The notes: generated from the letters alone by a model not told the origin. Positions 997 through 54,166 are shown, numbered from the stretch's first letter. The stretch: DNA of 64,000 nucleotides from Malacoraja senta (GCA_038087875.1 CM075994.1:4776001-4840000); one strand, 5' to 3'. Translations and numbers: made by a program.

Positions 997-2719
997 GTCT
1001 TTACTTAAGAAATACATCGACTAATATTTCAATCATTGAGAAGATTACACGTTATTTATCGAAAGCGATATATATGCATATCAATGAACTTATCAAATGT
1101 ATCATAGGAACATGAAAACAATATTCTATTATCATGTCGTGGATTGAAAATGATAATAGAATATTGTTTTCATTTTCCTATGATACATTTGATATGTATA
1201 TGATATCCATATATATCGCACACCTAATAATTTTAGGGCATCTTTACATTTTTTTTATTTCTGCAAGAAATGTCAATGGTAAATGCAATCTATTTGATAT
1301 CGAAGTTGCAAAACGTAACTAGCAGCCTGCCGAAACAAAGAAGCAGATGGACTCTTACTGAAAGACAGTTGGAATCAGTAGACACAGTGATGCCTTTGTG
1401 ATTATTTCCAGATAAGTCAATATGCCGAAAGCAATTCAAAGCAGCAAAGAACATGGAATTAGCTTCTTTTTTTCTTGATCGCAAAATGCATTTTCATATT
1501 GCAGCGTAAACGTCATCATTCGGCTATAAAGTGTGCGGGAGATGAAAGAGAATGAAAGATCTCACTCTGTGTATCTAAATGCGCACTATGATAATTTGAA
1601 TGTTAGACACAGTGGTACGTATTCAGTTGTCGTTTTTAGAAAAATATTACAAGAAACGCAATCCAAAACGAAACGGAAGTGTCCCGACGTGTTAAGTTAG
1701 CAGGTGCATCCAAAGGTTGGCGGTGGCTTCGCTTCAACTTTTGTAATAGTTGACTCATGTGTGAAGTTAATTCTATTTGGTAATGGGGAGAGCAACTAAA
1801 TGGAGCAGCGTTATTTTAGTGACAGTATGATATATCACGGAAACATTCATTGGATGGGGGGCGGGGGGGGGGGGCTGAAGTGGCAATAAGTAACGGGAAG
1901 CATAGCGGAGACAATGACCTATGTTATTTATCTGTAAATAGACCGAAGGGACAAGTTGTGTCCCGTCCCCTCAACACGTGCTTGCGGGGGCGGAGGCGGC
2001 TTGCGGCGTCACACACACACACACACACACACACACTAATCACCCCCTCCCCCCCACACACACATACGCAATAACCCCCCTTGATATTTTATTAATATTA
2101 TTTATTCGCTCGGTTTATCCCATCGCCCGCCCTTCCACTCATACATCTCCAACAAATGCACATGCGCGGCTATAGAGTGAGAGGGAGGGGGTGGAAGAGA
2201 GGGAGTGAGGGGGTGGAGAGGGAGCGGCAAGGGGTAGAGAGGGTGAGGGAGGGGTAGAGATTGAGGGTTAGGTGGCGCGCCGTGGCACAGAGGAGGGCTG
2301 GTCATCGAACGCAATACTCCAGCACTCAGCCATAGGTCCCAATAGTCACCACTCCCACGGGAAGGAGGGGGTAGAAAGGAAGGGGCCAGAGCGCGAGGGG
2401 GCCAGAGATGGAGGGGGCCGAGCAGGAGGGAGTCGCAGAGCGTGGGCAGGGGGCACAGAGGGAAGGTGTAGAGATGCGGTGTAGAGAGAAGGGGGTAGAG
2501 AGGGAGGTGGTACAGAAGGAGGGGTAAGGGCTAGAGAGGGTGTGGGGGTAGAGAGAGGGGAAGGGGTAGAGAGAGAGGGGTAGAGAGGATGTGGGAGGGA
2601 GTAGAGAGGGAGGTGCTTCAGAGGAAGGGGAGGGGGTAGAGAGGGATGGGGTGGGGGTGGCAGCCTTTTTGAATAAGCGGGGGCGGGAGAGAGTGCGAGA
2701 AGTGTGACAGACCTAGGGG

Positions 2720-2947
2720 GGAGTGTGATTAACCCGAGGGGAGTTGTGTGAATAACCCGAGGGGAGTTGTGTTTATAACCCGAGGGGAGTTGATTAAACC
2801 GTGGGGTGTATGAATTACCCGGGGGCATGTGAAAAACCTGTAGGGGAGGGTTTGAACCAATCGGGGGGGAGAGTGTGTATAATCCGGGAGCTGCGTATAT
2901 CAAACGGAGGAGGGAGTTGTGAATAACCCGGGGGGCTTGTGAATAAC
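2720..2947. repeat. ~22-23 bp degenerate minisatellite (aacccgaggggagttgtgtgaat) after a GA-rich tract (2173-2720)
   Basis: About 9-10 visible degenerate copies. Confidence 0.8.
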
Positions 2948-3418
2948 TCTACTGGAGGGGCGATTCCTAGGTGTCAACAACCTGGGATGTTTGCCGCCTT
3001 TATGAGCAGGTGATTCCGATTCTTCCAGTGGGCGGTGGGGTCGGGTGTGACTTGGCTCGAAATGTGTTGAAGATTCCGTGTGTGAGACGGCTCCGAGCTG
3101 AGCCATTGTGACGTCTCACTAATAGCTGGTTGTTTTAACTTTAAAGTCTTTTGACGTTTTGTTTAGCTTTAATCAGTAAAAAATCCATAAATAAAGCGTA
3201 CAATGTCGAGTGAAGGTATTCACTGTCTAGAGGGGGAAAATGTCAATCAGAATATCTAAAAAAATTACTTCCGGTGGCGCTAATGGTGGAGTAGAGGTGT
3301 GCGCCAGCTAGTTCCACGCAAAACCCGAGAAAAAATGGGAGAAAAATAACGGACTGTCCTGCAGAGATCGCACCGGCAGACTGAGTGACGTCATCAGTCC
3401 TGCGACTCCGGAGATATA

Positions 3419-4510
3419 ATGTCGGTAAAACACTCCCCCACAAAGGGAACGGCTAAATAACTGGGAAAAGCCAAAACTCCGGTGGAAGAAGTAGGCCCGA
3501 CTGAAGCCTCGGGCTCAGTTTCAACGTCGTCCCAGGAGGATGTTTCAAAGGTCCAGAAGCCAAAGACAAAGACAAGTGAAATGGAGGAACTTCGCATCCT
3601 TATCACTTAGAAAATTGCAAGTATCACTAAGGAAACTGCAAGTATGAGAGAAGAATTGATAAACTTTAAAAAAAAAGAACATTAAAGGAATACTGTGAGG
3701 TTTCAAAAATGAAATTAAAGAAGACCTCTTAGATTTTGAAGATAAAATCACTAAGTTTGTCCGTGCAGAACTGGTTACCATGAATGAGAAAATATGTGCA
3801 AACCTCGATTTACAAATTAATGAAGTAAATGAGAAAATTAAGTTGATTGAATCCAACCTAAATGCTAAGCTGGATCCTGTCTTCAACACAATAAATCAAC
3901 AAACTGAGGCCATAACTCATTTGGAGTCAATTGCTGATACGTTCTCTCAAACTACAGAAACACTTCTTGCCGAGTACAAGCGTTTATCAGATTTACTGCT
4001 TACAGTGACTGAAAAATGTAATGACTTGGAGGGACGCCAGAGACGTCAGAACTTAAGAATTGTTGGCGTCCTAGACGGTAAAGAAGGAACTAAAGATCTC
4101 CGTCACTATACTGCAGACTTATTGAAAAAAGTCTTGAATCTAGATCAAAAGCCTTTATTAGGCCGGGCACACATGGCTCTGGGACGTCGCTCGGGCCCGA
4201 ACTCGCCCCCAAGGCAACTGATAGTGAAGGTGCAATATGAACACGTCTTGGATGATATCATGAAAAAAATATTGCTGGCACCAGAAATCTTCTTTTCGAG
4301 GGAGACACAATCAGCATTTTCAGAGACTATCCTGCCGAAGTGGTCAAAAGCACAGCGTTATTTATCGAGACAAGAGGGATTCCTAAGAAGATAGACAACT
4401 TGAGATATGGACTGCTGCACCCTGCAAGATTGAGTGTCACCTATGAACGGAAGGAACATATTTTACTGATCACAAGAAAGCATTGGCGTTCGCCCAGAAG
4501 TTCGCCCTGA
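3419..4510 (+). pseudogene. L1 ORF1p (coiled coil + RRM, Transposase_22-like), disrupted
   Basis: ORF 3780-4394 has a heptad coiled coil then DLEGRQRRQNLRIVGVLDGKEG and RAH...PPRQLIVK, typical L1 ORF1 motifs; stops and frameshifts either side. Confidence 0.88.
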
Positions 4511-5275
4511 AGAGCGTGGGCTTGAATGCTGATTGAATAACATTCATATGATAACCTCATCTTGCGGAGAATAAATGGAACTTTAAATTGCTTTACTCAA
4601 GGACCAATGAAAGCTGATAACGACAACTGAACAGACCTTCTTGATATGGACATATTATTTTAATATTTTAGTACTAATTATTACTAACAAGTACTAATTA
4701 TTAAGACTACTATTATTATTATTAGAATAATTAGTTAAAAATATGAATTGCAAACAAGCTATAACCAGGGTATTTTATTAATTAAAATTAGCTATGTTTA
4801 TTCTTTTTTTTACATCAGACTAACATTTGGCTATTACTTAGCCAAGAGAGTATTAGTCTCTCATTACATGATTACTAATCTTTTGGACCAAAATAGTTAT
4901 AACATTAATCCCGTAAATCACTCTTATTAATTTTTTTAAACAAAATTTAGCGTGGTGCTAGTAATATTTTTTTTAAGGCTACGGAAGTCCTTAGATGGCC
5001 AGCCACGTAAGTGTGGCTTACACTAACTACACTATTTGTAGATGTAGTTTCTTCTTTTTTCTTGCACTTTATTAACCTTTATTTTTTGACTTTCTTTCTT
5101 TATTTGTTATTTAATTACTATCATAAAGTTGATTTGAATGATAAGTATTATTTGTGGAGAGCAGTCCGGGAGGAGGATCTATTAAATTTAAAACTCATCT
5201 GTCCTGTGTTCGGGTGGATTGTCTGGCATACTGTGCTGAGCTATCTACTCTTTTATAGATTACCTTAACCATAAG

Positions 5276-8164
5276 ATGCAAGACGTTAATAGAAAAATTG
5301 GCGATTAAGGAATTACTTTTTGTAGCTGGAACGTTAAGGGAATTAATGAATCAGGCAAGAGAGGTAAAGTATTAGCACACTTAAATTCACTCAATGCAGA
5401 TATAATATTTCTTCAAGAAACTCATTTTAACAATGATGCACAACATAGATTGAAAGCAAAATGGATTGCTGAAACATATCATTCTTCATTCTCCCATAAG
5501 GCCAGAGGGGGCGCAATTTAAATCCGCAAAGGTATACCTTTTAAACGTATATCAACTATTGCGAACAACAATGGTAGATATATTATACTAGTGGATGAAT
5601 TATATATTAAAAAAGTGATTCTTCTCAATGTATATGGACCAAATTTTCATAATCTTTTGTTTTTTAAGAACATACTTAATACTATCCCGGAACTCACTCA
5701 ACATAACTTGATAATTGGTGGAGGCTTAAATTGTACACTAGACTCTTATCTAGCCAGATCATCAAGACAAAGAAAAGTAAAATCTAAGACAAGCGAATTA
5801 TTAAACTCATACAATAATACTACTAATATCAAAGATGTTTGGATAATTGAAAAAGCATCCGGAAGGGAATACTCATTCTACTCTCCGGTACAAAAAAATT
5901 ACTCAAGGATAGATTATTTGTAGTAGATTCTAACCATATTCCATTCACTTATAATTCGAAATATCATAATATAATAATTTCGGACCATGCTCCTTTAACA
6001 TTTATGATCAAACTAAGTGGAATGACTGAGAAGCAGACACAATGGTGACTTAATCCTCAAATTCTAAATGATAAGACATGTTATGAATACGTTATCACAC
6101 AGATACATATGTTTTTAGAGACTATTGACTGCCCTGAAATATCTGCCTCCCTTGTTTGGGAAACATTTAAACCATTTGTACGAGGCGCGTTAATCTCCAC
6201 GCAAGCCTTTCGTAATAAAGAGAATCGCGCCAAACAAAAGGTATTGGAAATGGAGATAAGGCAATTAGATATGGAAAATGCAATCGCGCCCCCTACGATA
6301 ATACATAATAAAATTGCTGCACTCAAATATAAGTTAAATCAAATATACTCAGATCAATTCATAAAACTTTATCAAAATACTAAACAGCTACATTTTGAGT
6401 TTGGTGATAAACCACAAAAAATAAACTAACGTCAACTCCGGTAACAGGAAGGGGGAAAAACAATTTATAAAATTAAATCTGCTACGGGAGAAATACTAAC
6501 ATTACCCAAGGATATTAATGATAGATTTTCTCAATACTACCAAACACTTTACTCAACCAAAACAATAGTGTGGTCTGCAGGAATGGAATCATTTTTACAG
6601 AAATGTAATCTTACAGGTTTAGATCTGAAAGAGAGAGAATTATTAGGGGCCGAAATATCAGTAAAAGATATTGAAGAATCGATTAGATCTTTAAAAAATG
6701 GAAAGGCCGCTGGCTCTGAAGGTCTAAATAGCGAATTTATTTTAAAAATCCATCATCTGAGCTCCCCACGCCTACAGACACTATATACTCATGCCTTCAT
6801 GCAACAGAAACTACCAGAAACTTTAAATGAATCAACAATAATACATACCCAAAATGTATAAGGACCCTGAAGACCCAGGTTCATATAGAGCAATTGGTCT
6901 CTTAAACACCGATCAGAAAATATTAACCAAATTTTCAGCCCATAGATTATGTTTAGTGATTCGTAAATTAATACACCCTGACCAAACAGGCTTTATTCCA
7001 TAGCGCTACACATATTATAATCTGATTATTTAATGTTATATACTCAAATAGAATAGCTAATGTAGATCTAGCAGTCATCGCGTTAGACGCTGCGAAGAAC
7101 ATTCGATCAAGTGGAATGGCCCTATTTATTTCCGGTGATGAATAATGTGAAAACCCTATAATATATATTGGTATTCGAATTCGGAAACAACTGAAAAAGA
7201 CATTAAAATTAGACAATTTATCGCTTTCTCTCCCCATTGTAAATAATCCTTCATTTAAACCCTTAGTGTTGGATAAAGGTTTTGTACAATGGAAAAATCA
7301 TGGAATTAAAAAGATGGGGCATCTTTATAGAAATGGTATTTTTCTCCCTTTTCAGGAGCTACAACAGAATTATGTATTACATTCAAATAATTTGTTTAGA
7401 TATTTACAACTTAAAGATTATGTTAAATCACATATACAAGAATACAGGACTATAGAACCAGAGATTCTAGATGAATGTTTGAATAAACACCCTAACACAG
7501 TTAAATTAATATCTTACATTTATAATAGTCTATTAGACAGTGAGATTCCGTCGACGGAATTATATAGACTAGCATGGGAAAATGAATTAGCTCAACCCAT
7601 AACAAAAGATATTTGGGATGAAAGTCTACAAAATATACATCAATGCACATTAAATGCCAGACATTCTTTAATACATTTTAAAGTACTATTTAGACTGCAT
7701 TATTCTAAAACAAATTTAAATATAATCTTTCCTAATATCTCTCCTATCTGTGAGAAATGCCAATACTCGGCGGCTAATTTAACCCATACTTTTGTAAATT
7801 GTATAAAAATTAAAAATTTCTGAGTGGATATTTTTAAAATAATCTCCGTAGTTGTTAATACTCAACTGGATCCCAATCCTAAATGTATAATATTGGGCAT
7901 ATCAGAACAATACCTAAAACTTACAACAAACCAAAGACATTTCCTTGATTACAGTATAATAATTGGGAAAAAAATAATATTAAAATTTTGGAAAAATCCA
8001 GCAACCCCCACAAATAAGATATGGATTATGGAGAGGTCGGAGACCTTATAGTTGGAAAAAATAGATATGTCTTAATTGACAAACCAGAATTGTTTAGTAA
8101 AATATGGTCTCCATTTATAGATTATTTGAAGGGGTGGATTGGGCCGGCACGTAGGCCAGACTGA
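5276..8164 (+). pseudogene. L1 ORF2p (APE endonuclease, partial RT, C-terminal CCHC), disrupted
   Basis: EN motifs SWNVKG, LQETH, NVYGPN, SRIDY, SDH; RT N-terminal motifs YRAIGLLNTDQKILTK, HPDQTGFI, VEWPYL; C-terminal CEKC...HTFVNC. No QG/PLSP or YADD motifs seen; many stops. Confidence 0.9.
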
Positions 8165-10344
8165 AACCGGAACCCAGGACAAATTTGAATATTTATGTTT
8201 TCTGCCCTACGGACCTCGCTCCTAAGTTGCATTATTGATAGCTTATCTTATTTTTCTAATTTCTTCTCTTTAATTCTTTATTTTTCTGATCTATAAACAT
8301 AAATAAATAATTAGAGGATTGTTAATATGTAACCAATAAAGGAGGACTCCAGCTACTTTTGTAACTGTGTCCCAGGATCCCTGGATATTTAAAATGTAAT
8401 CGTTAAACAAGTTTTCTATTGGTTTGGACTATGATATGCAGATGCCTCAAATAAAAATTTAAATAAAAACAAATCTAAAACATTTTATCGTTACCGCGTA
8501 CTGTTTTTCCGAAGACGAAAATACACACACGTACACGCAAAGATCTGCACATGAACAAGATTAGAGTTTTATTTACTACTAGAGAAACTGCACTTGAATT
8601 TGGCGGCCTTGCACACTGCTTGAAGTGGTAGGAAACTACCCAAGTATGGTGGCCTTGCACTCTGCTTGAAGTGGTATGAATCTGCACTTGAGTTTGGTGG
8701 ACATTGACCCTGCTTGAACTGGTATGAAACTGCACTCGAGTTTGGTGGACTTGCACCCTGCTTGAAGTTGTATGAAACTGCACTTGAATTTGGTGGCATT
8801 GCCCTCTGCATGAAGTGGCAAGAAACAGCACTTGAATTTGGTGACCATTCACCCTGCATGAAGTGGTAGGAAACTGCACTTGAATTTGGTGGCCTTGCAC
8901 CCAGATAGAATTTGTATGAAACTGCACTTGAGTTTGGTGCACTTTGACCCCGCTTGAAGTGGTATGAAACTGCACACGAGTTTGGTGGAATTGCACCCAA
9001 TTTGAAGTGGTATGAAACTGCACTTGAATTTGGTGGCCTTGCAACCTGCTTGAAGCGGTATAAAAATGCATATGAATTTGGTGACGTTGCACCCTGCGTG
9101 AAGTGGCTCGAAACTGCACTTGAATTTTCTGGCCTTGCACCCCGATTGAAGTGGCATGAAACTGCACATGTTTGGTGGCCTTGCACCCTGCTTAAAGTGG
9201 TAGGAAAATGCACTTGAGTATGGTTGCCCTGGGCCCTGCTTGAAGATGTAGGAGACTGCACTAGAATTTGGTGGCCTTGCACACTGCTTAAAGTGGTAGG
9301 ACACTGCACTTGAATATGGTGGCCTTGCACCCTGCTTGAAGTGGTATGAAACTGCACTCGAGTTTGGTGGACCTGCTCCCTCCTTGAAGTGGTATGAAAC
9401 TGCATTTGAATTTGGTGGCCTTGCACCTTGAGTGAAGTGGCATGACACTGCACTTGAGTTTGGTGGCCAAGCACCCTGCTTGAAGTGGCATAAAACTGCA
9501 CTTGAATTTGCTGGCCTTGCACTCTGATTCAAGTGGCATGAAACTGCACTTGAGGTTGGTGAACTTGCGCCCTGCATGAAGTGGCATGAAACTGCACTTG
9601 AGTTTGTTGGCCTTGCACCCTGCATGAAGTGGCAAGAAACTGCACTTGAATTTGGTGGCCCTGCACCCTGCTTGAAGTGGTAGGAATCTGCACTTGATTA
9701 TGGTGGTCTTGCACCCTGCTTGAAGTAGTATGATACTGCACTTGAATTTGCTGGCCTTGCACTCTGATTTAAGTGGCATGAAACTGAAGTTGAGTTTGGT
9801 GGACTTGCACCCTGCATGAAGTGGCATGAAACTGCACTTGAGTTTGGGGGCCTTGCACCCTGCATGAAGTGGTAGGAAACTGCACTTGAGTGTGGTGGCC
9901 CTGCACCCTGCTTGTAGTGGTATGAAACTGCACTTGCATTTGGTGGCCTTGCACCCTGCTTGAAGTGGCATGAAACTGCACTTGAATTTGCTGGCCTTGC
10001 ACTCTGACTGAAGTGGCATGAAACTGCACTTGATGTTGGTGGACTTGCACTCTGCATGAAGTGGCATGAAACAGAACTTGAGTTTGGTGGCCTTGCACCC
10101 TGCATGAAGTGGTAGGAAACTGTACTTGAGTGTGGTGGCCCTGCACCCTGCTTGAAGCGGTAGGAAACTGCAATTGAGTTTGGTGGACTTGGGCTCTGCT
10201 TGAAGTGATATGAAACTGCACTTGAGTGTGGTGGATTTGCACCCTCCTTGAAGTGGCTTGAAACTGCACTTGAATTTTATGGCCATGCACCCTGCTTGAA
10301 GTGGCATGAATCTGCAGTTGAATTGAGTGCCCTTGCATGCTGCT

Positions 10345-10537
10345 TTAAACAACGTTTGAATTGGTTTGGACTTTGATATGCAGTTGCCTCTAATAAAAAT
10401 GTAATAATAAAAAAAATCAAAAGTAAATCTAAAAAATGTTATTGTTACCGCGTACTGTTTTTGCGAAGACGAAAATACACAAACATATACGCAAAGATAT
10501 GCACACGAACACGATCAGAGTATTATTATCTACTAGA
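10345..10537. repeat. Array spacer copy 1 (L1 3' tail + inverted Helitron 5' end)
   Basis: Homologous to 8401-8583 (ttaaacaa...ttggtttggac..gatatgcag..cctc..aataaaa...gttaccgcgtactgtt...tactaga). Confidence 0.92.
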
Positions 10538-13500
10538 GAAAATGCACGTGAATTTGGTGGCCTTGCACCCCGCTTGAATTGGTAGGAAACTGCACGAATA
10601 TGGTGGCCTTGCACCCTGCTTCAAGTGGTATGAATCTGCACTTGAGTTTGGTGGACTTTGACCCTGCTTGAAATGGTATGAAACTGCACTCGTGTTTGGT
10701 GGACTTGCACCCTGCTTGAAGTGGTATGAAACTGCACTTGAGTTTGGTGGACATGCACCCTCCTTGAAGTGGCATGAAACTGCACTTGGAATTTATGGCC
10801 ATGCACCCTGCTTGAAGTGGCATGAAACTACAGTTGAATTTAGTGCCCTTGCACCCTGCTTGAAGTGGTATGAAACTGAATTTGAGTTTGGTGGACTTTC
10901 AACCAGCTTGAAATGGTGTGAAACTGCTCCTAAATTTGGAGGCTTTTCACCCTGCTTGATGTGGCATGAAACTGCACTTGAATATGGTGGCCTTGCCCCG
11001 TGCATGAAGTGCCATGAAACTGCACTTGAATTTGGTGACCTTGCACTCTGCAGGAAGTGGCATGAAACTGCATTTGATTGTGGTGGCCTGGCACCCTGCT
11101 TGAAGTGGTAGGAAACTGCACTTGAATTTGGTGGCCTTGCACCCTGATAGAATTTGTATGAAACTGCACTTGAGTTTGGTGCACTTTGACCCCGCTTGAA
11201 GTGGTATGAAACTGCACTCGAGTTTGGTGGACTTGCACCCAAATTGAAGTGGCATGAAGCTGCACTTGAATTTGTTGGCCTTGCAGCCTGCTTGAAGCGG
11301 TATAAAAATGCATATGAATTTGGTGACCTTGCACCCTGCTTGAAGTGGCTCGAAACTGCACTTGAATTTTCTGGCCTTGCACCCTGATTGAAGTGGCATG
11401 AAACTGCACATGTTTGGTGGCCTTGCACCCTGCTTGAAGTGGTAGGAAAATGCACTTGAGTATGGTTGCCCTGGGCCCTGCTTGAAGATGTAGGAGACTG
11501 CACTTGAATTTGGTGGCCTTGCACACTGCTTAAAGTGGTAGGACACTGCACTTGAATATGGTGGCCTTGCAACCTGCTTGAAGTGGTATGAAACTGCACT
11601 CGAGTTTGGTGGACCTGCTCCCTCCTTGAAGTGGTATGAAACTGCATTTGAATTTGGTGGCCTTGCACCTTGAGTGAAGTGGCATGACACTGCACTTGAG
11701 TTTGGTTGCCTTGCACCCTGCTTGAAGTGGTAGGAAATTGCACTTGCGATTGGTGGCCCTGCACCCTGCTTGAAGTGGTAGGAAACTGCACTTGAATTTG
11801 GTGGCCTTGCACCCTGCTTGAAGTGATAGGAAACTGCACTTGGATATGGTGGTCTTGCACCCTGCTTGAAGTGGTATGAAACAGCACTTGAGTTTGGTGG
11901 ACTTTGACCCGGCTTCATGTGATATAATAATGCACTCGAGTTTGGTTGACATGCACCCTGCTTGAACTGGTATGAAACTGCACTTGAATTTGGTGGACTT
12001 GCACCCTCGTTGAAGTGGCTTGAAACTGCACTTGAATTTTATGGCCATGCACCCTGCTTGAAGTGGCATGAAACTGCAGTTGAATTTAGTGCCCTTGCAC
12101 CCTGCTTGAAGTGGTATGAAACTGAACTTGAGTTTGGTGGACTTTCAACCAGCTTGAAATGGTGTGAAACTGCTCCTAAATTTGGAGGCCTTTCACCCTG
12201 CTTGATGTGGCATGAAACTGCACTTGAATATGGTGGCCTTGCCCCGTGCATGAAGTGGCATGACACTGCACTTGAATTTGGTGACCTTGCACTCTGCAGG
12301 AAGTGGCATGGAACTGCATTTGAATTTGGTGGCCTGGCACCCTGCTTGAAGTGGTAGGAAACTGCACTTGAATTTGGTGGCCTTGCACCCAGATAGAATT
12401 TGTATGAAACTGCACTTGAGTTTGGTGCACTTTGACCCCGCTTGAAGTGGTATGAAACTGCACACGAGTTTGGTGGACTTGCACCGAATTTGAAGTGGTA
12501 TGAAACTGCACTTGAATTTGGTGGCCTTGCAACCTGCTTGAAGCGGTATAAAAATGCATATGAATTTGGTGACGTTGCACCCTGCTTGAAGTGGCTCGAA
12601 ACTGCACTTGAATTTTCTGGCCTTGCACCCTGATTGAAGTGGCATGAAACTGCACATGTTTGGTGGCCTTGCACCCTGCTTAAAGTGGTAGGAAAATGCA
12701 CTTGAGTATGGTTGCCCTGGGCCCTGCTTGAAGATGTAGGAGACTGCACTAGAATTTGGTGGCCTTGCACACTGCTTAAAGTGGTAGGACACTGCACTTG
12801 AATATGGTGGCCTTGCACCCTGCTTGAAGTGGTATGAAACTGCACTCGGGTTTGGTGGACCTGCTCCCTCCTTGAAGTGGTATGAAACTGCATTTGAATT
12901 TGGTGGCCTTGCACCTTGAGTGAAGTGGCATGACACTGCACTTGAGTTTGGTGGCCAAGCACCCTGCTTGAAGTGGCATAAAACTGCACTTGAATTTGTT
13001 GGCCTTGCACTCTGATTCAAGTGGCATGAGACTGCACTTGAGGTTGGTGGACTTGCACCCTGCATGAAGTGGCATGAAACTGCACTTGAGTTTGTTGGCC
13101 TTGCACCCTGCTTGAAGTGGCAAGAAACTGCACTTGAATTTGGTGGCCCTGCACCCTGCTTGAAGTGGTAGGAATCTGCACTTGAATATGGTGGTCTTGC
13201 ACCCTGCTTGAAGTAGTATGATACTGCACTTGAATTTGCTGGCCTTGCACTCTGATTTAAGTGGCGTGAAACTGAAGTTGAGTTTGGTGGACTTGCACCC
13301 TGCATGAAGTGGCATGAAACTGCACTTGAGTTAGGTGGCCTTGCACCCTGCATGAAGTGGTAGGAAACTGCACTTGAGTGTGGTGGCCCTGCACCCTGCT
13401 TGAAGTGGAAGGAAACTGCACTTGAATTTGGTGGCCTTGCACCCTGCTTGAAGTGGTAGGAAACTGCACTTGAATATGGTGAACTTGCAGCCTGCTTGAA

Positions 13501-13685
13501 GTGGTATGAAACTGCACTTGAGTTTGGTGGACTTGGGCTCTGCTTGAAGTGATATGAAACTGCACTTGAGTTTGGTGGACTTGCACCCTCCTTGAAGTGG
13601 CTTGAAACCGCACATGAATTTTATGGCCATGCACCATGCTTGAAGTGGCATGAAACTGCATTTGAATTTAGTGCCCTGCATCCTG

Positions 13686-13821
13686 CGTTAAACAACATTT
13701 GTATTGGTTTGGACTATGATATGCAGTTACCGCATACTGATTTTGCGAAGACGAAAATACACACACATATACGCAAATATATGCACACGAACAAGATCAG
13801 AGTATTATTATCTGCTATAGA
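13686..13821. repeat. Array spacer copy 2 (60-bp internal deletion)
   Basis: Same as 20781-20976 but joins atgcag directly to ttaccgc. Confidence 0.92.
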
Positions 13822-16800
13822 AACTGCACTTGAATTTGGTGGCCTTGCACCATGCTTGAAGTGGTAGGAAACTGCACGAACTTGGGGCCTTGCACCCTGC
13901 TTGATGTGGCATGAATCTGCTCCTGAATTTGGTGGCATTGCCCCCTGCATGAAGTGGCAAGTAACTGCACTCGAGTTTGGTGACCATTCACCCTGCTTGA
14001 AGTGGCATGAAACTGCACTTGAATTTTATGGCCATGCACCCTGCTTGAAGTGGCATGAAACTGCGGTTGAATTCAGTGCCCTTGCACCCTGCTTGAAGCG
14101 GCTTGAAACTGCACTTGTATTTGGTACACTTGCACCCTGCTTGAAGTGGCATGAAACTGCCCTTGAATTTGGTGGCCTTGCACCCTGCTTGAAGTGGTAG
14201 GAAATTGCACCTGAATATAGTGGACTTGCACCCTGCTTGAAGTGATAGGAGACTGCATTTGTATTTGGTGTCCTTGCACCCTGCATGAAGTGGCACGAAA
14301 CTGCACTTGAGTTTGATGGCCTTGCACCCTGCTTGAAGTTGTAGGAAACTGCACTTCAGTGTGGAGGTCCTGCACCCTACTTGAAGTGGTAGGAAACTGC
14401 ATTTGAATTTGTTGGCCCTGTACCCTGATTGATGTGGTATGAAGCTGCACTCGAGTTTGGTGGCCTTGCACCCTGCTTGAAGTGGCATGAAACTGCACTT
14501 GAATTTTCTGGCCATGCACCCTGATTGGAGTGGCATGAAACTGCACGAGTTTGGTGGCCTTGCACCCTGCTTGAAGTGGCATGAAACTGCACTTGAGATT
14601 GGTGGCCTTGCACCCTGCTTGAAGTGGCATGAAACAGCACTTGAATTATCTGGCCATGCACCCTGATTGACGTGGCATGAAACTGCACGAGTTTGGTGGC
14701 CTTGCACCCTGCTTGGTGGCATGAAACTGAACGAGTTTGGTGGCCTTGCACCCTTCTTGAAGTGGTAGAAAATTGCATTTGAGTGTGGTGGCCCTGGACC
14801 CTGCTTGAAGTAGTAGGAGACTGCAGTTGAATTTGGTGGCCATGCACTTTGCTTGAAGTGGTAGGAAACTGCACTTGAATATGGTGCACTTGCACCCTGC
14901 TTGACGGGGGATGAAACTGCACATGAGTTTGGTGGATTTGGACTCAGCTTGAAGTGGTATGAAACAGAACTTGAGTTTGGTGGTCTGGACCCTGTTTGAA
15001 GTGGTATGAAACTGCACTCGAGTTTGGTGGACTTGCACCCTGCTTGAAGTGGTATGAAACTGCACTTGAGTATCGTGGCTTTGCCCCCTGCATGAAGTGG
15101 CATGACACTGCACTTGAATTTGGTGACCTTTCTCCCTGCTTGAAGTGGTCTGAAACTGCACCTGAATCTGGTGGCCTTGCACCCTGCTTGAAGTGGTATG
15201 AAGCTGCACTTGAGTTTGGTGGCCTTGCACCCTGCTTGAAGTGGCATGAAACTGCACTTGAGTTTGGTGGCCTTGCACCCTGCTTGAAGTGGTAGGAAGC
15301 TACACTTGAGAATGGTGGCCCTGCACCCTGCTTGAAGTGGTAGGAAACTGCACTTGAATTTGGTTGCCTTGCACCCTGCTTGAAGTGGTAGGAAACTGCA
15401 CTTGAATATGGTGGTCTTGCACCCTGCTTGAAGTGGTAGGAAACTGCACTTGAATATGGTGGTCTTGCACCCTGCTTGAAGTGGTATGAAACTGAACTTG
15501 AGTTTGGTGGACTTTCAACCAGCTTGAAATGGTGTGAAACTGCTCCTAAATTTGGAGGCCTTTCACCCTGCTTGATGTGGCATGAAACTGCACTTGAATA
15601 TGGTGGCCTTGCCCCGTGCATGAAGTGCCATGAAACTGCACTTGAATTTGGTGACCTTGTACTCTGCAGGAAGTGGCATGAAACTGCATTTGAATTCGGT
15701 GGCCTGGCACCCTGCTTGAAGTGGTAGGAAACTGCACTTGAATTTGGTGGCCTTGCACCCTGATAGAATTTGTATGAAACTGCACTTGAGTTTGGTGCAC
15801 TTTGACCCCGCTTGAAGTGGTATGAAACTGCACTCGAGTTTGGTGGACTTGCACCCAATTTGAAGTGGTATGAAACTGCACTTGAATTTGGTGGCCTTGC
15901 AACCTGCTTGAAGCGGTATAAAAATGCATATGAATTTGGTGACCTTGCACCCTGCTTGAAGTGGCTCGAAACTGCACTTGAATTTTCTGGCCTTGCACCC
16001 TGATTGAAGTGGCATGAAACTGCACATGTTTAGTGGCCTTGCACCCTGCTTAAAGTGGTAGGAAAATGCACTTGAGTATGGTTGCCCTGGGCCCTACTTG
16101 AAGATGTAGGAGACTGCACTTGAATTTGGTGGCCTTGCACACTGCTTAAAGTGGTAGGACACTGCACTTGAATATGGTGGCTTTGCACCCTGCTTGAAGT
16201 GGTATGAAACTGCACTCGAGTTTGGTGGACCTGCTCCCTCCTTGAAGTGGTATGAAATTGCATTTGAATTTGGTGGCCTTGCACCTTGCGTGAAGTGGCA
16301 TGACACTGCACTTGAGTTTGGTGGCCTAGCACCCTGCTTGAAGTGGCATAAAACTGCACTTGAATTTGCTGGCCTTGCACTCTGATTCAAGTGGCATGAA
16401 ACTGCACTTGAGGTTGGTGAACTTGCGCCCTGCACGAAGTGGCATGAAACTGCACTTGAGTTTGTTGGCCTTGCACCCTGCATGAAGTGGCAAGAAACTG
16501 CACTTGAATTTGGTGGCCCTGCACCCTGCTTGAAGTGGTAGGAATCTGCACTTGATTATGGTGGTCTTGCACCCTGCTTGAAGTAGTATGATACTGCACT
16601 TGAATTTGCTGGCCTTGCACTCTGATTTAAGTGGCGTGAAACTGAAGTTGAGTTTGGTGGACTTGCACCCTGCATGAAGTGGCATGAAACTGCACTTGAG
16701 TTTGGGGGCCTTGCACCCTGCATGAAGTGGTAGGAAACTGCACTTGAGTGTGGTGGCCCTGCACCCTGCTTGTAGTGGTATGAAACTGCACTTGCATTTG

Positions 16801-17202
16801 GTGTCCTTGCACCCTGCTTGAAGTGGCATGAAACTGCACTTGAATTTGCTGGCCTTGCACTCTGACTGAAGTGGCATGAAACTGCACTTGTGGTTGGTGG
16901 ACTTGCACTCTGCATGAAGTGGCATGAAACAGAACTTGTGTTTGGTGGCCTTGCACCCTGCATGAAGTGGTAGGAAACTGTACTTGAGTGTGGTGGCCCT
17001 GCACCCTGCTTGAAGTGGTAGGAAACTGCAATTGAGTTTGGTGGACTTGGGCTCTGCTTGAAGTGATATGAAACTGCACTTGAGTGTGGTGGATTTGCAC
17101 CCTCCTTGAAGTGGCTTGAAACTGCACTTGAATTTTATGGCAATGCACACTGCTTGAAGTGGCATGAATCTGCAGTTGAATTGAGTGCCCTTGCATGCTG
17201 CT

Positions 17203-17395
17203 TTAAACAACGTTTGAATTGGTTTGGACATTGATATGCAGTTGCCTCTAATAAAAATGTAATAATAAAAAAAATCTAAAGTAAATCTAAAAAATGTTAT
17301 TGTTACCGCGCACTGTTTTTGCGAAGACGAAAATACACAAACATATACGCAAAGATATGCACACGAACACGATCAGAGTATTATTATCTACTAGA
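17203..17395. repeat. Array spacer copy 3
   Basis: Nearly identical to copy 1, offset 6858 bp. Confidence 0.92.
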
Positions 17396-20300
17396 GAAAA
17401 TTCACGTGAATTTGGTGGCCTTGCACCCCGCTTGAATTGGTAGGAAACTGCACGAATATGGTGGCCTTGCACCCTGCTTCAAGTGGTATGAATCTGCACT
17501 TGAGTTTGGTGGACTTTGACCCTGCTTGAAATGGTATGAAACTGCACTCGTGTTTGGTGGACTTGCACCCTGCTTGAAGTGGTATGAAACTGCACTTGAG
17601 TTTGGTGGACATGCACCCTCCTTGATGTGGCATGAAACTGCACTTGGATTATATGGCCATGCACCCTGCTTGAAGTGGCATGAAACTGCAGTTGAATTTA
17701 GTGCCCTTGCACCCTGCTTGAAGTGGTATGATACTGAACTTGAGTTTGGTGGACTTTCAACCAGCTTGAAATGGTGTGAAACAGCTCCTAAATTTGGAGG
17801 CTTTTCACCCTGCTTGATGTGGCATGAAACTGCACTTGAATATGGTGGCCTTGCCCCGTGCATGAAGTGCCATGAAACTGCACTTGAATTTGGTGACCTT
17901 GCACTCTGCAGGAAGTGGCATGAAACTGCATTTGATTGTGGTGGCCTGGCACCCTGCTTGAAGTGTTAGGAAACTGCACTCGAATTTGGTGGCCTTGCAC
18001 CCTGATAGAATTTGTATGAAACTGCACTTGAGTTTGGTGCACTTTGACCCCGCTTGAAGTGGTATGAAACTGCACTCGAGTTTGGTGGACTTGCACCCAA
18101 ATTGAAGTGGTATGAAGCTGCACTTGAATTTGTTGGCCTTGCAACCTGCTTGAAGCGGTATAAAAATGCATTTAAATTTGGTGACCTTGCACCCTGCTTG
18201 AAGTGGCTCGAAACTGCACTTGAATTTTCTGGCCTTGCACCCTGATTGAAGTGGCATGAAACTGCACATGTTTGGTGGCCTTGCACCCTGCTTGAAGTGG
18301 TAGGAAAATGCACTTGAGTATGGTTGCCCTGGGCCCTGCTTGAAGATGTAGGAAACTGCACTTGAATTTGCTGGCCTTGCACACTGCTTAAAGTGGTAGG
18401 ACACTGCACTTGAATATGGTGGCCTTGCACCCTGCTTGAAGTGGTATGAAACTGCACTCGAGTTTGGTGGACCTGCTCCCTCCTTGAAGTGGTATGAAAC
18501 TGCATTTGAATTTGGTGGCCTTGCACCTTGAGTGAAGTGGCATGACACTGCACTTGAGTTTGGTGGCCTTGCACCCTGCTTGAAGTGGCATGAAACTGCA
18601 CGAGTTTGGTTGCCTTGCACCCTGCTTGAAGTGGTAGGAAATTGCACTTGCGATTGGTGGCCCTGCACCCTGCTTGAAGTGGTAGGAAACTGCACTTGAA
18701 TTTGGTGCCCTTGCACCCTGCTTGAAGTGATAGGAAACTGCACTTGGATATGGTGGTCTTGCACCCTGCTTGAAGTGGTATGAAACAGCACTTGAGTTTG
18801 GTGGACTTTGACCCGGCTTCAAGTGATATAATAATGCACTCGAGTTTGGTTGACATGCACCCTGCTTGAACTGGTATGAAACTGCACTTGAATTTGGTGG
18901 ACTTGCACCCTCGTTGAAGTGGCTTGAAACTGCACTTGAATTTTATGGCCATGCACCCTGCTTGAAGTGGCATGAAACTGCAGTTGAATTTAGTGCCCTT
19001 GCACCCTGCTTGAAGTGGTATGAAACTGAACTTGAGTTTGGTGGACTTTCAACCAGCTTGAAATGGTGTGAAACTGCTCCTAAATTTGGAGGCCTTTCAC
19101 CCTGCTTGATGTGGCATGAAACTGCACTTGAATATGGTGGCCTTGCCCCGTGCATGAAGTGCCATGAAACTGCACTTGAATTTGGTGACCTTGCACTCTG
19201 CAGGAAGTGGCATGAAACTGCATTTGAATTTGGTGGCCTGGCACCCTGCTTGAAGTGGTAGGAAACTGCACTTGAATTTGGTGGCCTTGCACCCAGATAG
19301 AATTTGTATGAAACTGCACTTGAGTTTGGTGCACTTTGACCCCGCTTGAAGTGGTATGAAACTGCACACGAGTTTGGTGGACTTGCACCCAATTTGAAGT
19401 GGTATGAAACTGCACTTGAATTTGGTGGCCTTGCAACCTGCTGGAAGCGGTATAAAATGCATATGAATTTGGTGACGTTGCACCCTGCTTGAAGTGGCTC
19501 GAAACTGCACTTGAATTTTCTGGCCTTGCACCCTGATTGAAGTGGCATGAAACTGCACATGTTTGGTGGCCTTGCACCCTGCATAAAGTGGTAGGAAAAT
19601 GCACTTGAGTATGGTTGCCCTGGGCCCTGCTTGAAGATGTAGGAGACTGCACTTGAATTTGGTGGCCTTGCACACTGCTTAAAGTGGTAGGACACTGCAC
19701 TTGAATATGGTGGCCTTGCACCCTGCTTGAAGTGGTATGAAACTGCACTCGAGTTTGGTGGACCTGCTCCCTCCTTGTAGTGGTATGAAACTGCATTTGA
19801 ATTTGGTGGCCTTGCACCTTGAGTGAAGTGGCATGACACTGCACTTGAGTTTGGTGGCCAAGCACCCTGCTTGAAGTGGCATAAAACTGCACTTGAATTT
19901 GCTGGCCTTGCACTCTGATTCAAGTGGCATGAAACTGCACTTGAGGTTGGTGGACTTGCACCCTGCATGAAGTGGCATGAAACTGCACTTGAGTTTGTTG
20001 GCCTTGCACCCTGCATGAAGTGGCAAGAAACTGCACTTGAATTTGGTGGCCCTGCACCCTGCTTGAAGTGGTAGGAATCTGCACTTGAATATGGTGGTCT
20101 TGTACCCTGCTTGAAGTAGCATGATACTGCACTTGAATTTGCTGGCCTTGCACTCTGATTTAAGTGGCGTGAAACTGAAGTTGAGGTTGGTGGACTTGCA
20201 CCCTGCATGAAGTGGCATGAAACTGCACTTGAGTTTGTTGGCCTTGCACCCTGCATGAAGTGGCAAGAAACTGCACTTGAATTTGGTGGCCCTGCACCCT

Positions 20301-20780
20301 GCTTGAAGTGGTAGGAATCTGCACTTGAATATGGTGGTCTTGCACCCTGCTTGAAGTAGCATGATACTGCACTTGAATTTGCTGGCCTTGCACTCTGATT
20401 TAAGTGGCGTGAAACTGAAGTTGAGTTTGGTGGACTTGCACCCTGCATGAAGTGGTAGGAAACTGCACTTGAGTGTGGTGGCCCTGCACCCTGCTTGAAG
20501 TGGAAGGAAACTGCACTTGAATTTGGTGGCCTTGCACCCTGCTTGAAGTGGTAGGAAACTGCACTTGAATATGGTGAACTTGCAGACTGCTTGAAGTGGT
20601 ATGAAACTGCACTTGAGTTTGGTGGACTTGGGCTCTGCTTGAAGTGATATGAAACTGCACTTGAGTTTGGTGGACTTGCACCCTCCTTGAAGTGGCTTGA
20701 AACCGCACATGAATTTTATGGCCATGCACCATGCTTGAAGTGGCATGAAACTGCATTTGAATTTAGTGCCCTGCATCCTT

Positions 20781-20976
20781 CGTTAAACAACATTTGTATT
20801 GGTTTGGACTATGATATGCAGATGCCTCTAATAAAAATTCAATAATTAAAAAAAATAATAATAATCTAAAACATGTTATCGTTACCGCATACTGATTTTG
20901 CGAAGACGAAAATACACACACATATACGCAAAGATATGCAAGCGAACAAGATCAGAGTATTATTATCTGCTATAGA
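20781..20976. repeat. Array spacer copy 4
   Basis: Shares diagnostic variants with copy 2 (catttgtattgg, cgcatactgatt, tctgctataga). Confidence 0.92.
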
Positions 20977-23900
20977 AACTGCACTTGAATTTGGTGGCCT
21001 TGCACCATGCTTGAAGTGGTAGGAAACTGCACGAACATGGTGGCCTTGCACCCTGCTTGATGTGGCATGAATCTGCTCCTGAATTTGGTGGCATTGCCCC
21101 CTGCATGAAGTGGCAAGTAACTGCACTCGAGTTTGGTGACCATTCACCCTGCTTGAAGTGGCATGAAACTGCACTTGAATTTTATGGCCATGCACCCTGC
21201 TTGAAGTGGCATGAAACTGCGGTTGAATTCAGTGCCCTTGCACCCTGCTTGAAGCGGCTTGAAACTGCCCTTGAATTTGGTGGCCTTGCACCCTGCTTGA
21301 AGTGGTAGGAAATTGCACCTGAATTTAGTGGACTTGCACCCTGCTTGAAGTGATAGGGGACTGCATTTGTATTTGGTGTCCTTGCACCCTGCATGAAGTG
21401 GCACGAAACTGCACTTGAGTTTGATGGCCTTGCACCCTGCTTGAAGTTGTAGGAAACTGCACTTCAGTGTGGAGGTCCTGCACCCTACTTGAAGTGGTAG
21501 GAAACTGCATTTGAATTTGTTGGCCCTGTACCCTGATTGAAGTGGTATGAAACTGCACTTGAGTTTGGTGGACATTGACCCCTCTTGAAGTGGTATGAAA
21601 CAGCACTCGAGTTTGGTGGACTTGCACCCTGATTGAAGTGGCATGAAACTGCACTTGAGTTTGGTGGCCTTGCACCGTGTTTGAAGTGGTAGGAAACTGC
21701 AGTTGAGTGTGGTGGCCCTGGACCCTGCTTGAAGTGGTATGAAACTGCATTTCAATTTGGAGGCCTTGCACCCTGCTTGAAGTGGCATGAAACTGCACTT
21801 GAATATGGTGGCCTTGCACCCTGCACGAAGTGGCATGAAACTGCACTTGAATTTGGTGGGCTGGCACCTTGCTTGATGTGGTAGGAAACTGCACTTGAAT
21901 TTGGTGGCCTTGCACCCTGCTAGAAGTTGTATGAAACTGCACTGAGTTTGGTGGACATTGACCCCGCTTGAAGTGGTATGAAACTGCACTCGAGTTTGGT
22001 GGCCTTGCACCCTGCTTGAAGTGGCATGAAACTGCACTTGAATTTTCTGGCCATGCACCCTGATTGGAGTGGCATGAAACTGCACGAGTTTGGTGGCCTT
22101 GCACCCTGCTTGAAGTGGCATGAAACTGCACTTGAGATTGGTGGCCTTGCACCCTGCTTGAAGTGGCATGAAACTGCACTTGAATTATCTGGCCATGCAC
22201 CCTGATTGACGTGGCATGAAACTGCACGAGTTTGGTGGCCTTGCACCCTGCTTGGTGGCATGAAACTGCACGAGTTTGGTGGCCTTGCACCCTGCTTGAA
22301 GTGGTAGAAAATTGCATTTGAGTGTGGTGGCCCTGGACCCTGCTTGAAGTAGTAGGAGACTGCAGTTGAATTTGGTGGCCATGCACCTTGCCTGAAGTGG
22401 TAGGAAACTGCACTTGAATATGGTGGACTTGCACCCTGCTTGACGTGGGATGAAACTGCGCATGAGTTTGGTGGATTTGGACTCAGCTTGAAGTGGTATG
22501 AAACAGAACTTGAGTTTGGTGGTCTTGGACCCTGCTTGAAGTGGTATGAAACTGCACTCGAGTTTGGTGGACTTGCACTCTGCTTGAAGTGGTATGAAAC
22601 TGCACTTGAGTATGGTGGCCTTGCCCCCTGCATGAAGTGGCATGAAACTGCACTTGAATTTGGTGACCTTTCTCCCTGCTTGAAGTGGTCTGAAACTGCA
22701 CCTGAATCTGGTGGCCTTGCACCCTGCTTGAAGTGGTATGAAGCTGCACTTGAGTTTGGTGGCCTTGCACCCTGCTTGAAGTGGCATGAAACTGCACTTG
22801 AGTTTGGTGGCCTTGCACCCTGCTTGAAGTGGTAGGAAGCTGCACTTGAGAATGGTGGCCCTGCACCCTGCTTGAAGTGGTAGGAAACTGCACTTGAATT
22901 TGGTTGCCTTGCACCCTGCTTGATGTGGTAGGAAACTGCACTTGAATATGGTGGTCTTGCACCCTGCTTGAAGTGGTATGAAACTGTACTTGAGTTTGGT
23001 GGACTTCGCCCTGCTTCAAGTGGTATTAAACTGCACTCGAGTTTGGTGGACATGCACCCTGCTTGAACTGGAATGAAACTGCACTTGAATTTGGTGGCCT
23101 TGCACCCTGAATGAAGTGGCAAGAAACTGCACTTGAATTTGTTGTCCTTTCACCCTGGAAGAAGTGGTATGAAACTGCACTTGAATTTGGTGGCCTTGCA
23201 CCCGGCTTGGAGTGGTATGAAACTGCACTTGAATTTGTTGTCCTTGCACCCTGCTTGAAATGGTATGAAACTGCATTTGAATTTGGTGGCCTTGCACCCG
23301 GCTTGAGTGGTATGAAACTGCACTTGAATTTGCTTGTCTTGCACCCTGATTGAAGTGGAATGAAACTGCACTTGTGTATGGTGCCCTTGCACCCTGCTTG
23401 AAGTGGCATGAAAAGGCACTTGAGTTTGGTGGCCTTGCACCCTGCTTGAAGTGGTAGGAAACTGTACTTGAGTATGGAGGCCCTAGTCCTGCTTGAAATG
23501 GTATGAAACTGCACTTGAATTTGGTGGCCTTGCACCCGGCTTGAGTGGTATGAAACTGCACTTGAATTTGCTTGTCTTGCACCCTGATTGAAGTGGAATG
23601 AAACTGCACTTGTGTATGGTGCCCTTGCACCCTGCTTGAAGTGGCATGAAAAGGCACTTGAGTTTGGTGGCCTTGCACCCTGCTTGAAGTGGTAGGAAAC
23701 TGTACTTGAGTATGGAGGCCCTAGTCCTGCTTGAAGTGGTAGGAGACTGCACTTGAATTTGGTGGCCTTGCACCCTGCTTGGTGGTAGGGAACTGCACTT
23801 GAATTTGCTGGCCTTGCACTCTGATTGAAGTGGCATAAAACTGCACTTCAGTTTGGTGGCCTTGCACCCTGCTTGAAGTGGCAGGAAACTGCACTTGAGT

Positions 23901-24975
23901 TTGGAGGCCTTGCACCCTGCTTGACGTGACATGAAACTACACTTGAGTTTGGTGGCCTTGCACCCTGCTTGAAGTGACATGAAACTACACTTGAATACGG
24001 TGGCCTTGCACCCTGCTTGAAGTGGTATGAATGTGCAGTTGAGTTTGGTAGAATTGGACTCTGCGTGAAGTGGTATGAAACTGCACTTGAGTTTGGTCGA
24101 CTTTCCCCCTGCTTGAAGTGGTCTGAAACTGCACCTGAATCTGGTGGCCTTGCACCCTGCTTGAAGTGGTATGAAGCTGCACTTGAGTTTGGTGGCCTTG
24201 CGCCCTGCTTGAAGTGGCATGAAACTGCAGTTGAGTTTGGTGGCCTCGCATCCTGCTTGAAGTGGTAGGATGCTGCACTTGAGAATGGTGGCCCTGCACC
24301 CTGCTTGATGTGGTAGGAAACTGCACTTGAATTTGGTGGCCTTGCACCCTGCTTGAAGTGGTAGGAAACTGCACTTGAATATGGTGGTCTTGCACCCTGC
24401 TTGAAGTGGTATGAAACTGTACTTGAGTTTGGTGGACTTCGCCCTGCTTCAAGTGGTATTAAACTGCACTCGAGTATGATGGACATGCACCCTGCTTGAA
24501 CTGGAATGAAACTGCACTTGAATTTGGTGGCGTTGCCCCCTGAATGAAGTGGCAAGAAACTGCACTAGAATTTGTTGTCCTTTCACCCTGCAAGAAGTGG
24601 TAAGAAACTGCATTTGATTTTGGTGGCCTTGCCTCCTGCATGATGTGGTACGAAATTGCACTTGAATGTGTTGGCCTTGCACCCTGCTTGCTGTGCTATG
24701 TAACTGCACTTGAATTTGGTGGCCCAGCACCATGCTTGAAGTGGCATGAAAATGCACTTGCATTTGGTGGCCTTGCACCCTGCTTGAAGTGGCAGGAAAC
24801 TGTGCTTAAGTTTTGTGGACTGTCACCCTGCATGAAGTGGTAGGAAACTGCCCTAGCATTTGGTGGCCTTGCACCCTGCTTGACGTTGCAGGAAACTGCA
24901 CTTAAATTTCGTGGCCTTGCCCCCTGCTTGAAATGGTAGGAAACTGCATTTGAATTTGGTGGCCTTGCACCCTGC

Positions 24976-25276
24976 CATAAATGGGATTACATGGAATAGC
25001 CATGAGTCAACCGCCGGCCCACCAGCCGTGAGCGAGCTGCCAGCACATTAGGCTTCAGTGACTGAGCTGCCATCCCGAAAATCCAGTTGTCCCACAATGT
25101 CCATACTAGCCCTCTGGAAACCAGTCCCTTCAGCCCACAAGACCCATACTAGCGATCCAGAAAGCAACCGCCCTCCCCACTGGCTACCAATTTGGAATTC
25201 GTGAGAGGTGGAATATTGCGTTGGGGACCAGCCCTCCCGTGTGAACATGGGACCCAACGGGTCCCACTTAGTCTAG
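24976..25276 (+). mobile_element. 3' terminal segment of Helitron-like element (B) directly downstream of the 48-bp array
   Basis: Perfect hairpin tgggaccc-aac-gggtccca (25248-25266), short spacer, CTAG (25273-25276) followed by T; same architecture as 57646-57674. Confidence 0.82.
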
Positions 25277-25601
25277 TAATCATCTATATGTACTCAGTAC
25301 AACTTGTACCCGAGTTTCTGCATGGCAAGAGAAAGGGGAAATCAACCCAAACGGACAGCTTTACGAACGGCGGAGTCTTTTTTGGAGGTGACGAAGGAGA
25401 TTGCTGAAGGTAGGGCGAATGGTATAAATGGTAAACCAGGCTAAATAGAACTGCAGTGGGTCGTGGTCGAAAGTAGTGTTCTGGCTTAAGAACCGGTGGA
25501 GTCATAGATACATAGATCCATAGAAAATAGGTGCAGGAGTAGGCCATTCGGCCCATCGAGCCTGCACCGCCATTCAATATGATCATGGCTGATCATCCAA
25601 C

Positions 25602-28570: not shown

Positions 28571-28722
28571 CCATTTAAGAACCCCACCACCTCTTATTCT
28601 CTGTTTATTATTGTTTTCTTCTTTCCCCCCTGCATGTTGGGTCTGAGTGTTTTCCTTCTCTGCCTCCTACCTCACACACTGTCTAATAGCATTCTCTATT
28701 TGAGTCCCTCCCCCCAACCATT

Positions 28723-37030: not shown

Positions 37031-37170
37031 TCAGTGGTGTGAGATTGCAACCTGCACGTGGTCCGCCCTCTTTCGCCGAATGCATACAACCCGGCGTGCA
37101 CAATCAAGTAAGATCAAATAGAATAAATTGTCCTGCAACTTTAGGCTGTGCACGCCATACGCAAGAAGAA
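37031..37170 (+). mobile_element. 140-bp retroposed 3' fragment with (AAG)n tail
   Basis: 11-bp TSD gaaagcattag (37020-37030, 37171-37181); ends gcaagaagaa; interrupts the hAT transposase. Confidence 0.75.
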
Positions 37171-54100: not shown

Positions 54101-54166
54101 CGTCTGTACGTCTGTACGTCTGTACGTCTGTACGTCTGTACGTCTGTACGTCTGTACGTCCGTACG
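54101..54166. repeat. (CTGTACGT)n microsatellite, ~7-8 units
   Basis: Direct. Confidence 0.95.

Follow-up and report, generated by a model that had tools for sequence, protein, structure and literature searches.

A 64,000-nucleotide stretch of Malacoraja senta DNA (GCA_038087875.1, CM075994.1:4776001-4840000; the window) carries a tandem array of 48-bp repeats, and at four places within this array stands a block that likely joins the tail of an L1-type retrotransposon to the inverted 5' end, or head, of a Helitron. How did pieces of two mobile elements become part of a satellite? A first-pass annotation of the window, which is retrotransposon-dense vertebrate DNA, had proposed that a single founding junction was amplified after the L1 insertion. 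Our analysis indicates, with a probability of about three in four, that the locus is a passive composite repeat, grown locally through tandem duplication and unequal exchange.

Spacer copies and their common junction

The block in its native place (8401..8585, plus strand, 185 bp) consists of what is likely the last ~72 bp of the L1, a candidate target-site duplication (TSD) and the inverted head of an element that we call Helitron A, whose 5' TC (8585-8584) overlaps the first monomer of the array. A blastn search of the 64-kb window found this block again four times, always inside the 48-bp array and in the same orientation, and no further copies elsewhere in the window. The three full internal copies share 81-83% identity with the native one (E 2e-55, 1e-51 and 7e-49), and the copy at 13686 was matched as two pieces (E 5e-26 and 6e-12). 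These internal spacers are of two types, all on the plus strand: type I at 10345..10539 (195 bp, AATAAA kept) and at 17203..17397 (195 bp, 1.5% from the former), and type II at 13686..13821 (136 bp) and at 20781..20976 (196 bp, 2.2% from the former). Relative to the 20781 copy, a 60-nt deletion in the 13686 copy took the AATAAA, the A-tail and the candidate TSD; the AATAAA is retained in three of the four internal copies. The five copies reported by the first-pass annotation are therefore real, but the length given for them (~185-195 bp) does not hold at 13686.

All four internal copies follow a GAATT(G/T)AGTGCCC monomer variant, which is broken at the identical point each time. The variant had been noticed before, but it is not specific to the junction, as its 10 occurrences comprise the four broken by a spacer and six intact ones. 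What sets the broken variants apart is a derived C-to-T change (GCAT for GCAC), present in every one of them and in none of the six intact ones; this shared base and the common breakpoint bear out the idea of one founding junction. At the junction the broken monomer lacks 12 bp, and the join between monomer and L1 tail shows a microhomology of ~1 nt. On the other side, homologues of the native first monomers come after every head, down to the loss of 2 bp in the second of them, which confirms that flanking DNA was drawn into the repeat unit. Because the native first monomers trail every head, the copied unit comprised the L1 tail, the head and monomers. The shared breakpoint together with the native downstream monomers in all four cases argues that the copies arose as duplications of the array edge and not as insertions, and the missing 12 bp likewise shows that the spacers are not clean insertions.

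The same flanks bear on another explanation, by which each spacer would be a mini-Helitron, made of a head and an L1 tail picked up with it, and would have jumped into the array on its own. The 5' TC of a Helitron does open every spacer, and Helraiser is on record as inserting in truncated form with a new 3' end (PMC4778049). However, the sequences on the two sides of a spacer do not add up to one monomer, the native flank recurs on the right every time, the same site is used in all four cases, and neither a CTRR motif nor a hairpin stands at the spacer end. As the downstream monomers that all copies share contradict separate hops, we rejected this candidate as extremely improbable.

Instead of five equal copies, three spacer lineages can be told apart (native, type I and type II), and two of them were doubled recently. 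The native spacer differs from the internal ones by 12.6-16.4% and type I from type II by 8.2-12.9%; the monomers downstream of the spacers diverge to a comparable degree, by 10-13%. A tree of the five spacers contains two strongly supported pairs (100/100 and 99/97) and a separate native branch of 0.085, with a near-star base; being unrooted, it alone is no proof of one founding junction.

The L1-type element and the Helitron ends

The left half of the spacer likely belongs to a decayed full-length L1-type retrotransposon at 3268..8472 on the plus strand, whose 5' start is approximate. Its first open reading frame (ORF), an ORF1-like region at 3699-4394 (+), was recognized through Atlas neighbours from Chordata with a LINE-1 type transposase domain (score 0.90-0.92); Transposase_22 occurs in 29-64% of the members of two Atlas clusters near it, and the region itself reached no Pfam cutoff. 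The ORF2 pieces (+) extend from 5309 to 8164, where the last piece has its stop, and an APE-type endonuclease stands at the ORF2 start (5309-5518; PF03372, 31 bits against a cutoff of 24.5). This was the one piece among the seven L1 pieces scanned to pass the Pfam cutoff, and no reverse transcriptase domain was matched in the short ORF2 pieces scanned, with 6842-7003 and 6049-6429 lying outside that scan. After the 3' untranslated region, AATAAA occurs at 8450 and 8462, and an A-rich tail runs to 8472. The left copy of the candidate TSD, with the core ATCTAAAA, lies at 3254..3267 (+); this site and 8473-8480 have 8 exact bases in common, ~14 if mismatches are admitted, and 10 in the comparison with the type I copies.

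Contigs from four sequencing runs of three related organisms, to which all mentions of related organisms below refer, cover the L1 many times over along its whole length, with a summed depth of 1556-7414 at 8276-8467 against 9-128 at 2900-3091. Of 24 public runs listed, from which these four were taken, none was of the same species, the best sharing 0.20 of the window's words. Variants carried by several contigs occur at 8317-8360, while the rows listed include no variant within 8401-8472. One contig of run X1 spans 8288-8442 (155 bases) with 0 differences and crosses the 8401 boundary; it may represent the orthologous locus in a close relative. Most other L1 contigs of that run are less than 99% alike. 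Judged by its position, its AATAAA and A-tail, and these contigs, 8401-8472 is likely the tail of the L1.

It could also be that 8401-8472 is part of Helitron A, or of the satellite locus, and not of the L1; the spacers would then not help to date events against the L1 insertion. The support from the candidate TSD, at p ~0.06, leaves room for this explanation, and the variant-bearing contigs of the relatives can, on our reading, be traced only to ~8400; 8448-8479 was skipped as repeat. Yet the segment is continuous with the last ORF2 piece and ends in AATAAA and an A-rich tail beside the candidate TSD, the contig without differences crosses 8401 (even if possibly at the orthologous locus), and the summed depth at 8276-8467 far exceeds that at 2900-3091. 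We therefore consider a non-L1 origin quite unlikely. Two further searches gave negatives of narrow scope: a joint skipping the L1 (3267 to 8473) was not seen among the 15 of 35 joints and 24 of 2502 loose ends listed for the related organisms, where the skipped repeat again applies and the result is no evidence of absence, and a pattern scan for the L1-tail motif had 0 matches in metagenome contigs, where vertebrate DNA is not expected.

The right half of the spacer is the putative 5' end of Helitron A (8473..8585, minus strand), with TC, the motif AAAACTCT and GT-rich repeats as in a third element, Helitron C. The latter, which served as the reference for Helitron ends within the window, is a complete non-autonomous element at 54068-57674 (+) that starts with TC after an A and ends with a hairpin and CTAG before a T; inside it lie tandem duplications of the 3' region and, by eye, two SINE-like (short interspersed element) inserts at ~55240-55450 and ~57050-57210. 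The AAAACTCT motif, chosen after the data had been seen, has six matches in the window, which are the five heads and Helitron C. The body and 3' end of the non-autonomous Helitron A lie beyond the L1 at 1938..3266 (-), ending at ~1938 with a hairpin (-5.2 kcal/mol, at the right distance) and CTAT before a T, one base off CTAG. This body matches the 3' region of Helitron C at 67.6% over 213 bp (E 5e-21), and position 3207-3208 is covered by 4-11 contigs in each of the four runs of related organisms. On sequence grounds, Helitron A likely runs from 8585 to 1938, with the L1 inside it ~110 bp from the head.

The first base of Helitron A is ambiguous by 2 nt, and in all five heads a T (or C) precedes the TC where an A would be canonical, with T as the 3' flank (for canonical junctions see PMC4778049); this lowers the certainty on the exact terminus and fits a later deletion there. 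No monomers were found by blastn beyond the 3' end of Helitron A in the window. Because of this and the non-A base before TC, Helitron A does not seem to be a simple insertion into the array, and a deletion that joined its head to the array is the likelier course.

At its other end the array adjoins the 3' part of a Helitron B (24976..25276, +, 301 bp), which closes with a hairpin of -8.6 kcal/mol and CTAG before a T and shares 30 of 35 bases with the Helitron C end (E 2e-4). There is no plus-strand Helitron head upstream of the array in the window. Given this terminus and the abundance of the 48-bp unit in the related organisms, the unit probably belongs to the interior of a non-autonomous Helitron family (B); the 5' part of the element is absent from the locus.

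Growth of the array

The 48-bp array occupies 8584..24975 (+) and decomposes into 329 monomers in five segments of 37, 66, 71, 71 and 84, with nested higher-order duplications; the limits of 8401..20976 assigned earlier were too narrow, as the array continues to 24975 and a Helitron-type 3' terminus follows. The distances between successive spacers are unequal (1944, 3341, 3517 and 3578 bp). Monomers differ on average by 11.7% from the majority unit and pairwise at 9.5 of 48 sites (19.7%), compared with 12.6-16.4% between native and internal spacers. Because the monomers diverge more than the spacers, the 48-bp repeat is older than the junction, and only the local expansion follows it. The proposal that the amplification is younger than the L1 thus applies to the spacer-bearing expansion, provided that 8401-8472 is the L1 tail, but not to the repeat itself. 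The 329 monomers form 147-164 context clusters; the six adjoining the native head and the last ~10 of the array are unique, in keeping with unequal exchange, under which unique monomers are expected at array edges.

Among the related organisms the 48-bp unit is very abundant in all four runs, and the commonest neighbours of a monomer on either side are more monomers. A joint between a monomer and 8401 was not found there among 15 of 35 joints and 24 of 2502 loose ends, which is no evidence of absence; a scan with the monomer pattern gave 0 matches in viral, metagenome and prokaryote contigs, where vertebrate DNA is not expected. The majority unit is free of stops in four of six frames, which accounts for spurious ORFs of up to 590 aa in the array, and on this ground a coding role for the long minus-strand frames was rejected. 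One frame of 408 aa crosses a type I spacer (9288-10514), and in a protein search with its residues 1-135 none of 52 candidates scored.

The clearest record of growth is a recent higher-order duplication at 8870..22979 (+), in which 8870-15439 corresponds to 15728-22979 and each half holds one type I and one type II spacer. Over 6521 aligned bases the halves differ by 87 substitutions (1.33%) and by gaps of 46, 192, 60, 48 and 431 bases plus three of 1 base. As this one event of ~7 kb doubled both spacer types, the divergence within each pair is only 1.5-2.2%. Its breakpoints lie inside monomers. Among 26 near-identical runs in the array, just two of the 104 ends fall at a head, and both mark an alignment break in a single run that picks up again beyond the spacer; several nested duplications with differing offsets stand at 1-3.4%. 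Transversions outnumber transitions both in the recent duplication (55 versus 32) and between the monomers and the majority unit (1016 versus 710), opposite to the usual vertebrate bias; this could stem from variants exchanged between monomers or from consensus error.

Two adjacent halves of 98.7% identity might also be two haplotypes placed in tandem by the assembly; there would then be only two internal spacers, made by the same mechanism. We regard such an artefact as unlikely, since the halves differ by 87 substitutions and by monomer-sized gaps with just three single-base gaps in 6.5 kb, and the nested duplications at different offsets are those of an array that truly duplicates.

Taken together, we propose that the composite repeat was built in five steps. 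A 48-bp minisatellite borne by Helitron B would first have come against the oppositely oriented 5' end of Helitron A, probably via a deletion, since the 5' part of B is missing. The L1 then likely inserted ~110 bp inside the Helitron A head. Next, one illegitimate tandem duplication would have linked a monomer of the AGTGCCC variant with a site 72 bp short of the L1 end; this left breakpoint lies 183 bp outside the array, and the joint itself stands in the sequence, from which we infer the event. Its product would be the unit of L1 tail, Helitron head and monomers. A second duplication, recorded in the two internal types, followed soon after and gave rise to types I and II. Much later, as the paired halves record, unequal exchange between monomers doubled ~7 kb with both spacers and produced further nested duplications, and one copy lost 60 nt. 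Unequal crossing over has also been held responsible for composite arrays of transposable element pieces and satellites in published work (10.1101/2021.07.12.451456, 10.1101/2022.12.01.518724).

Several points weigh against this account. The candidate TSD is weak, as 318 of 5000 shuffles were as good (p ~0.06); 112 of 2000 A-matched 26-mers from the window also equalled it. That 8401-8472 matches the 3' ends of other L1 copies is, from the sequence, likely only. The 7-kb doubling is known from the assembly alone, and the assignment of the array to Helitron B rests on one locus. The private changes of the native, type I and type II spacers (20, 14 and 8) do not depart clearly from a star (chi-square p 0.08), and the near-star split among them would also fit a single burst that made several copies. 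Finally, on the minus strand five Helitron 5' ends stand against a single 3' end (1938), an arrangement that a review attributes to rolling-circle arrays (PMC12628747).

This imbalance is what a rolling-circle origin would explain. The founding recombination would have excised a circle lacking a terminator and holding the Helitron 5' end, L1 tail and monomers; RepHel acting in trans would have copied it from the TC, and the concatemer would have re-entered the locus. None of the 56 sites in the array with CTRR before a T looks like a terminator, the best hairpin reaching -1.7 kcal/mol versus -8.6 and -7.2 kcal/mol at two true ends, and a circle without terminator is a fit template. Helraiser can transpose with no more than its 5' end (PMC4778049), arrays of truncated Helitrons are known in plants (Xiong et al. 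2016, via PMC12628747), and the near-star base of the spacer tree allows the oldest event to be of this kind. However, the recent doubling ends in monomers, at a distance from the head of at least ~1.9 kb on one side and of 6 monomers on the other, which excludes rolling circle for that event, and the unit boundaries at the 5' TC that it predicts are not those of the recent duplications, given where the run ends fall. There are, moreover, only two old internal lineages at unequal spacing, the terminal motif is changed in all internal heads, and a copy of the junction elsewhere was not seen in the limited tests on contigs of related organisms. A composite satellite founded by a Helitron rolling circle, with the L1 tail marking the truncation and each internal head still an initiation site that could mobilise array, L1 and Helitron A as one unit, is thus unlikely in our view; if true, it would tie Helitron Rep activity directly to the growth of a vertebrate satellite.

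Spacers as probable passengers and related systems

Do the spacers do anything in the array? The earlier suggestion was that they seeded it with poly(A) signals and potential Rep nicking ends. The spacers show no sign of constraint, as they change at the rate of the neighbouring monomers, and the candidate of spacers under constraint was accordingly rejected. All four internal heads depart from the form of AAAACTCT that the native head has in common with Helitron C; in Helraiser the terminal 40 bp hold the cleavage determinants, and the altered position of the motif falls there (PMC4778049). With one poly(A) signal lost, no constraint, the motif changed throughout and duplication ends that do not lie at heads, the functional part of the suggestion finds no footing at the sequence level, and nothing points to a use of the spacer signals. 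In the composite repeat proposed here, the spacers ride along neutrally and act as clock marks by which the history of the array can be read.

Other elements of the window were observed in passing. A retrotransposon at 25480-28666 (-), inserted ~200 bp past the Helitron B end, has frames for an endonuclease (406 aa) and a reverse transcriptase (549 aa) with a single stop between them; from its motifs, we take it to be CR1-like. Long imperfect inverted termini of 32-bp subrepeats (41399-41560 and 43000-43160) and inverted internal blocks make 41290-43210, by eye, a candidate foldback or MITE-like (miniature inverted-repeat transposable element) element. Repeats of 70 bp with GCGCATGCGC motifs occur at 30940-31142, with similar motifs at ~37480-37530; by eye, these GCGCATGCGC-type repeats bracket, across 30940-37530, minus-strand hAT-type transposase-like remnants interrupted by CR1 pieces.

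A composite has been defined as a tandem unit of three or more kinds of repeat, and is ascribed to unequal crossing over (10.1101/2021.07.12.451456). The locus combines an L1 tail, a Helitron head and a 48-bp satellite (the first two with the caveats given above) in four internal units of one orientation, and so falls under this definition. Human teucer-ajax in TELO_Comp (Hoyt et al., 10.1101/2021.07.12.451456) resembles it in carrying a ~49-bp satellite and a flanking non-satellite block in a tandem higher-order unit; here, by contrast, one locus holds four unequal internal units that combine an L1 tail with a Helitron head and with a 48-mer probably carried by a Helitron, and no sequence relation is claimed. 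In HSat1B/DYZ2 an AluY subunit is likewise a retroelement fragment fixed in a satellite unit and multiplied by unequal exchange (10.1101/2022.12.01.518724), but DYZ2 is described as a homogenised satellite of megabase scale, whereas the array here covers 16 kb and its three spacer lineages differ by 8-16%. The common cetacean satellite, with an L1 3' end, and the chicken HinfI repeat, with CR1, also hold 3'-terminal sequence of a long interspersed element in the tandem unit (PMC9659126); in both the element piece is a main part of the monomer, while here it amounts to ~72 bp per 2-4 kb.

Arrays borne by Helitrons or Helentrons come close in another respect. Oyster Cg_HINE (PMC7492417) and the 'intermediate' arrays, described as having Helitron parts on one side only (PMC12628747), share with our array a Helitron terminus on one side and a unit that is dispersed and common to several species. 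Unlike Cg_HINE, the termini here are of the TC/CTAG type and not HINE boxes, and the other side is formed by the inverted head of a second Helitron. The rolling-circle arrays of truncated Helitrons (Xiong et al. 2016, via PMC12628747) also have many 5' ends, one 3' end and no terminator in the unit; however, most of the unit here comes from DNA that lies upstream of the 5' end, and the duplication that can be dated breaks inside monomers. A literature search across listings and the beginnings of abstracts found no description of the 48-bp family or of this locus, and the family may well be catalogued already in repeat libraries such as Dfam or Repbase.

The locus calls for no new mechanism and offers a small, clear case of an array edge drawn into a satellite. 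Its spacers, read as dated marks, put in order the L1 insertion, the first duplication, a second one soon after and the recent 7-kb doubling.

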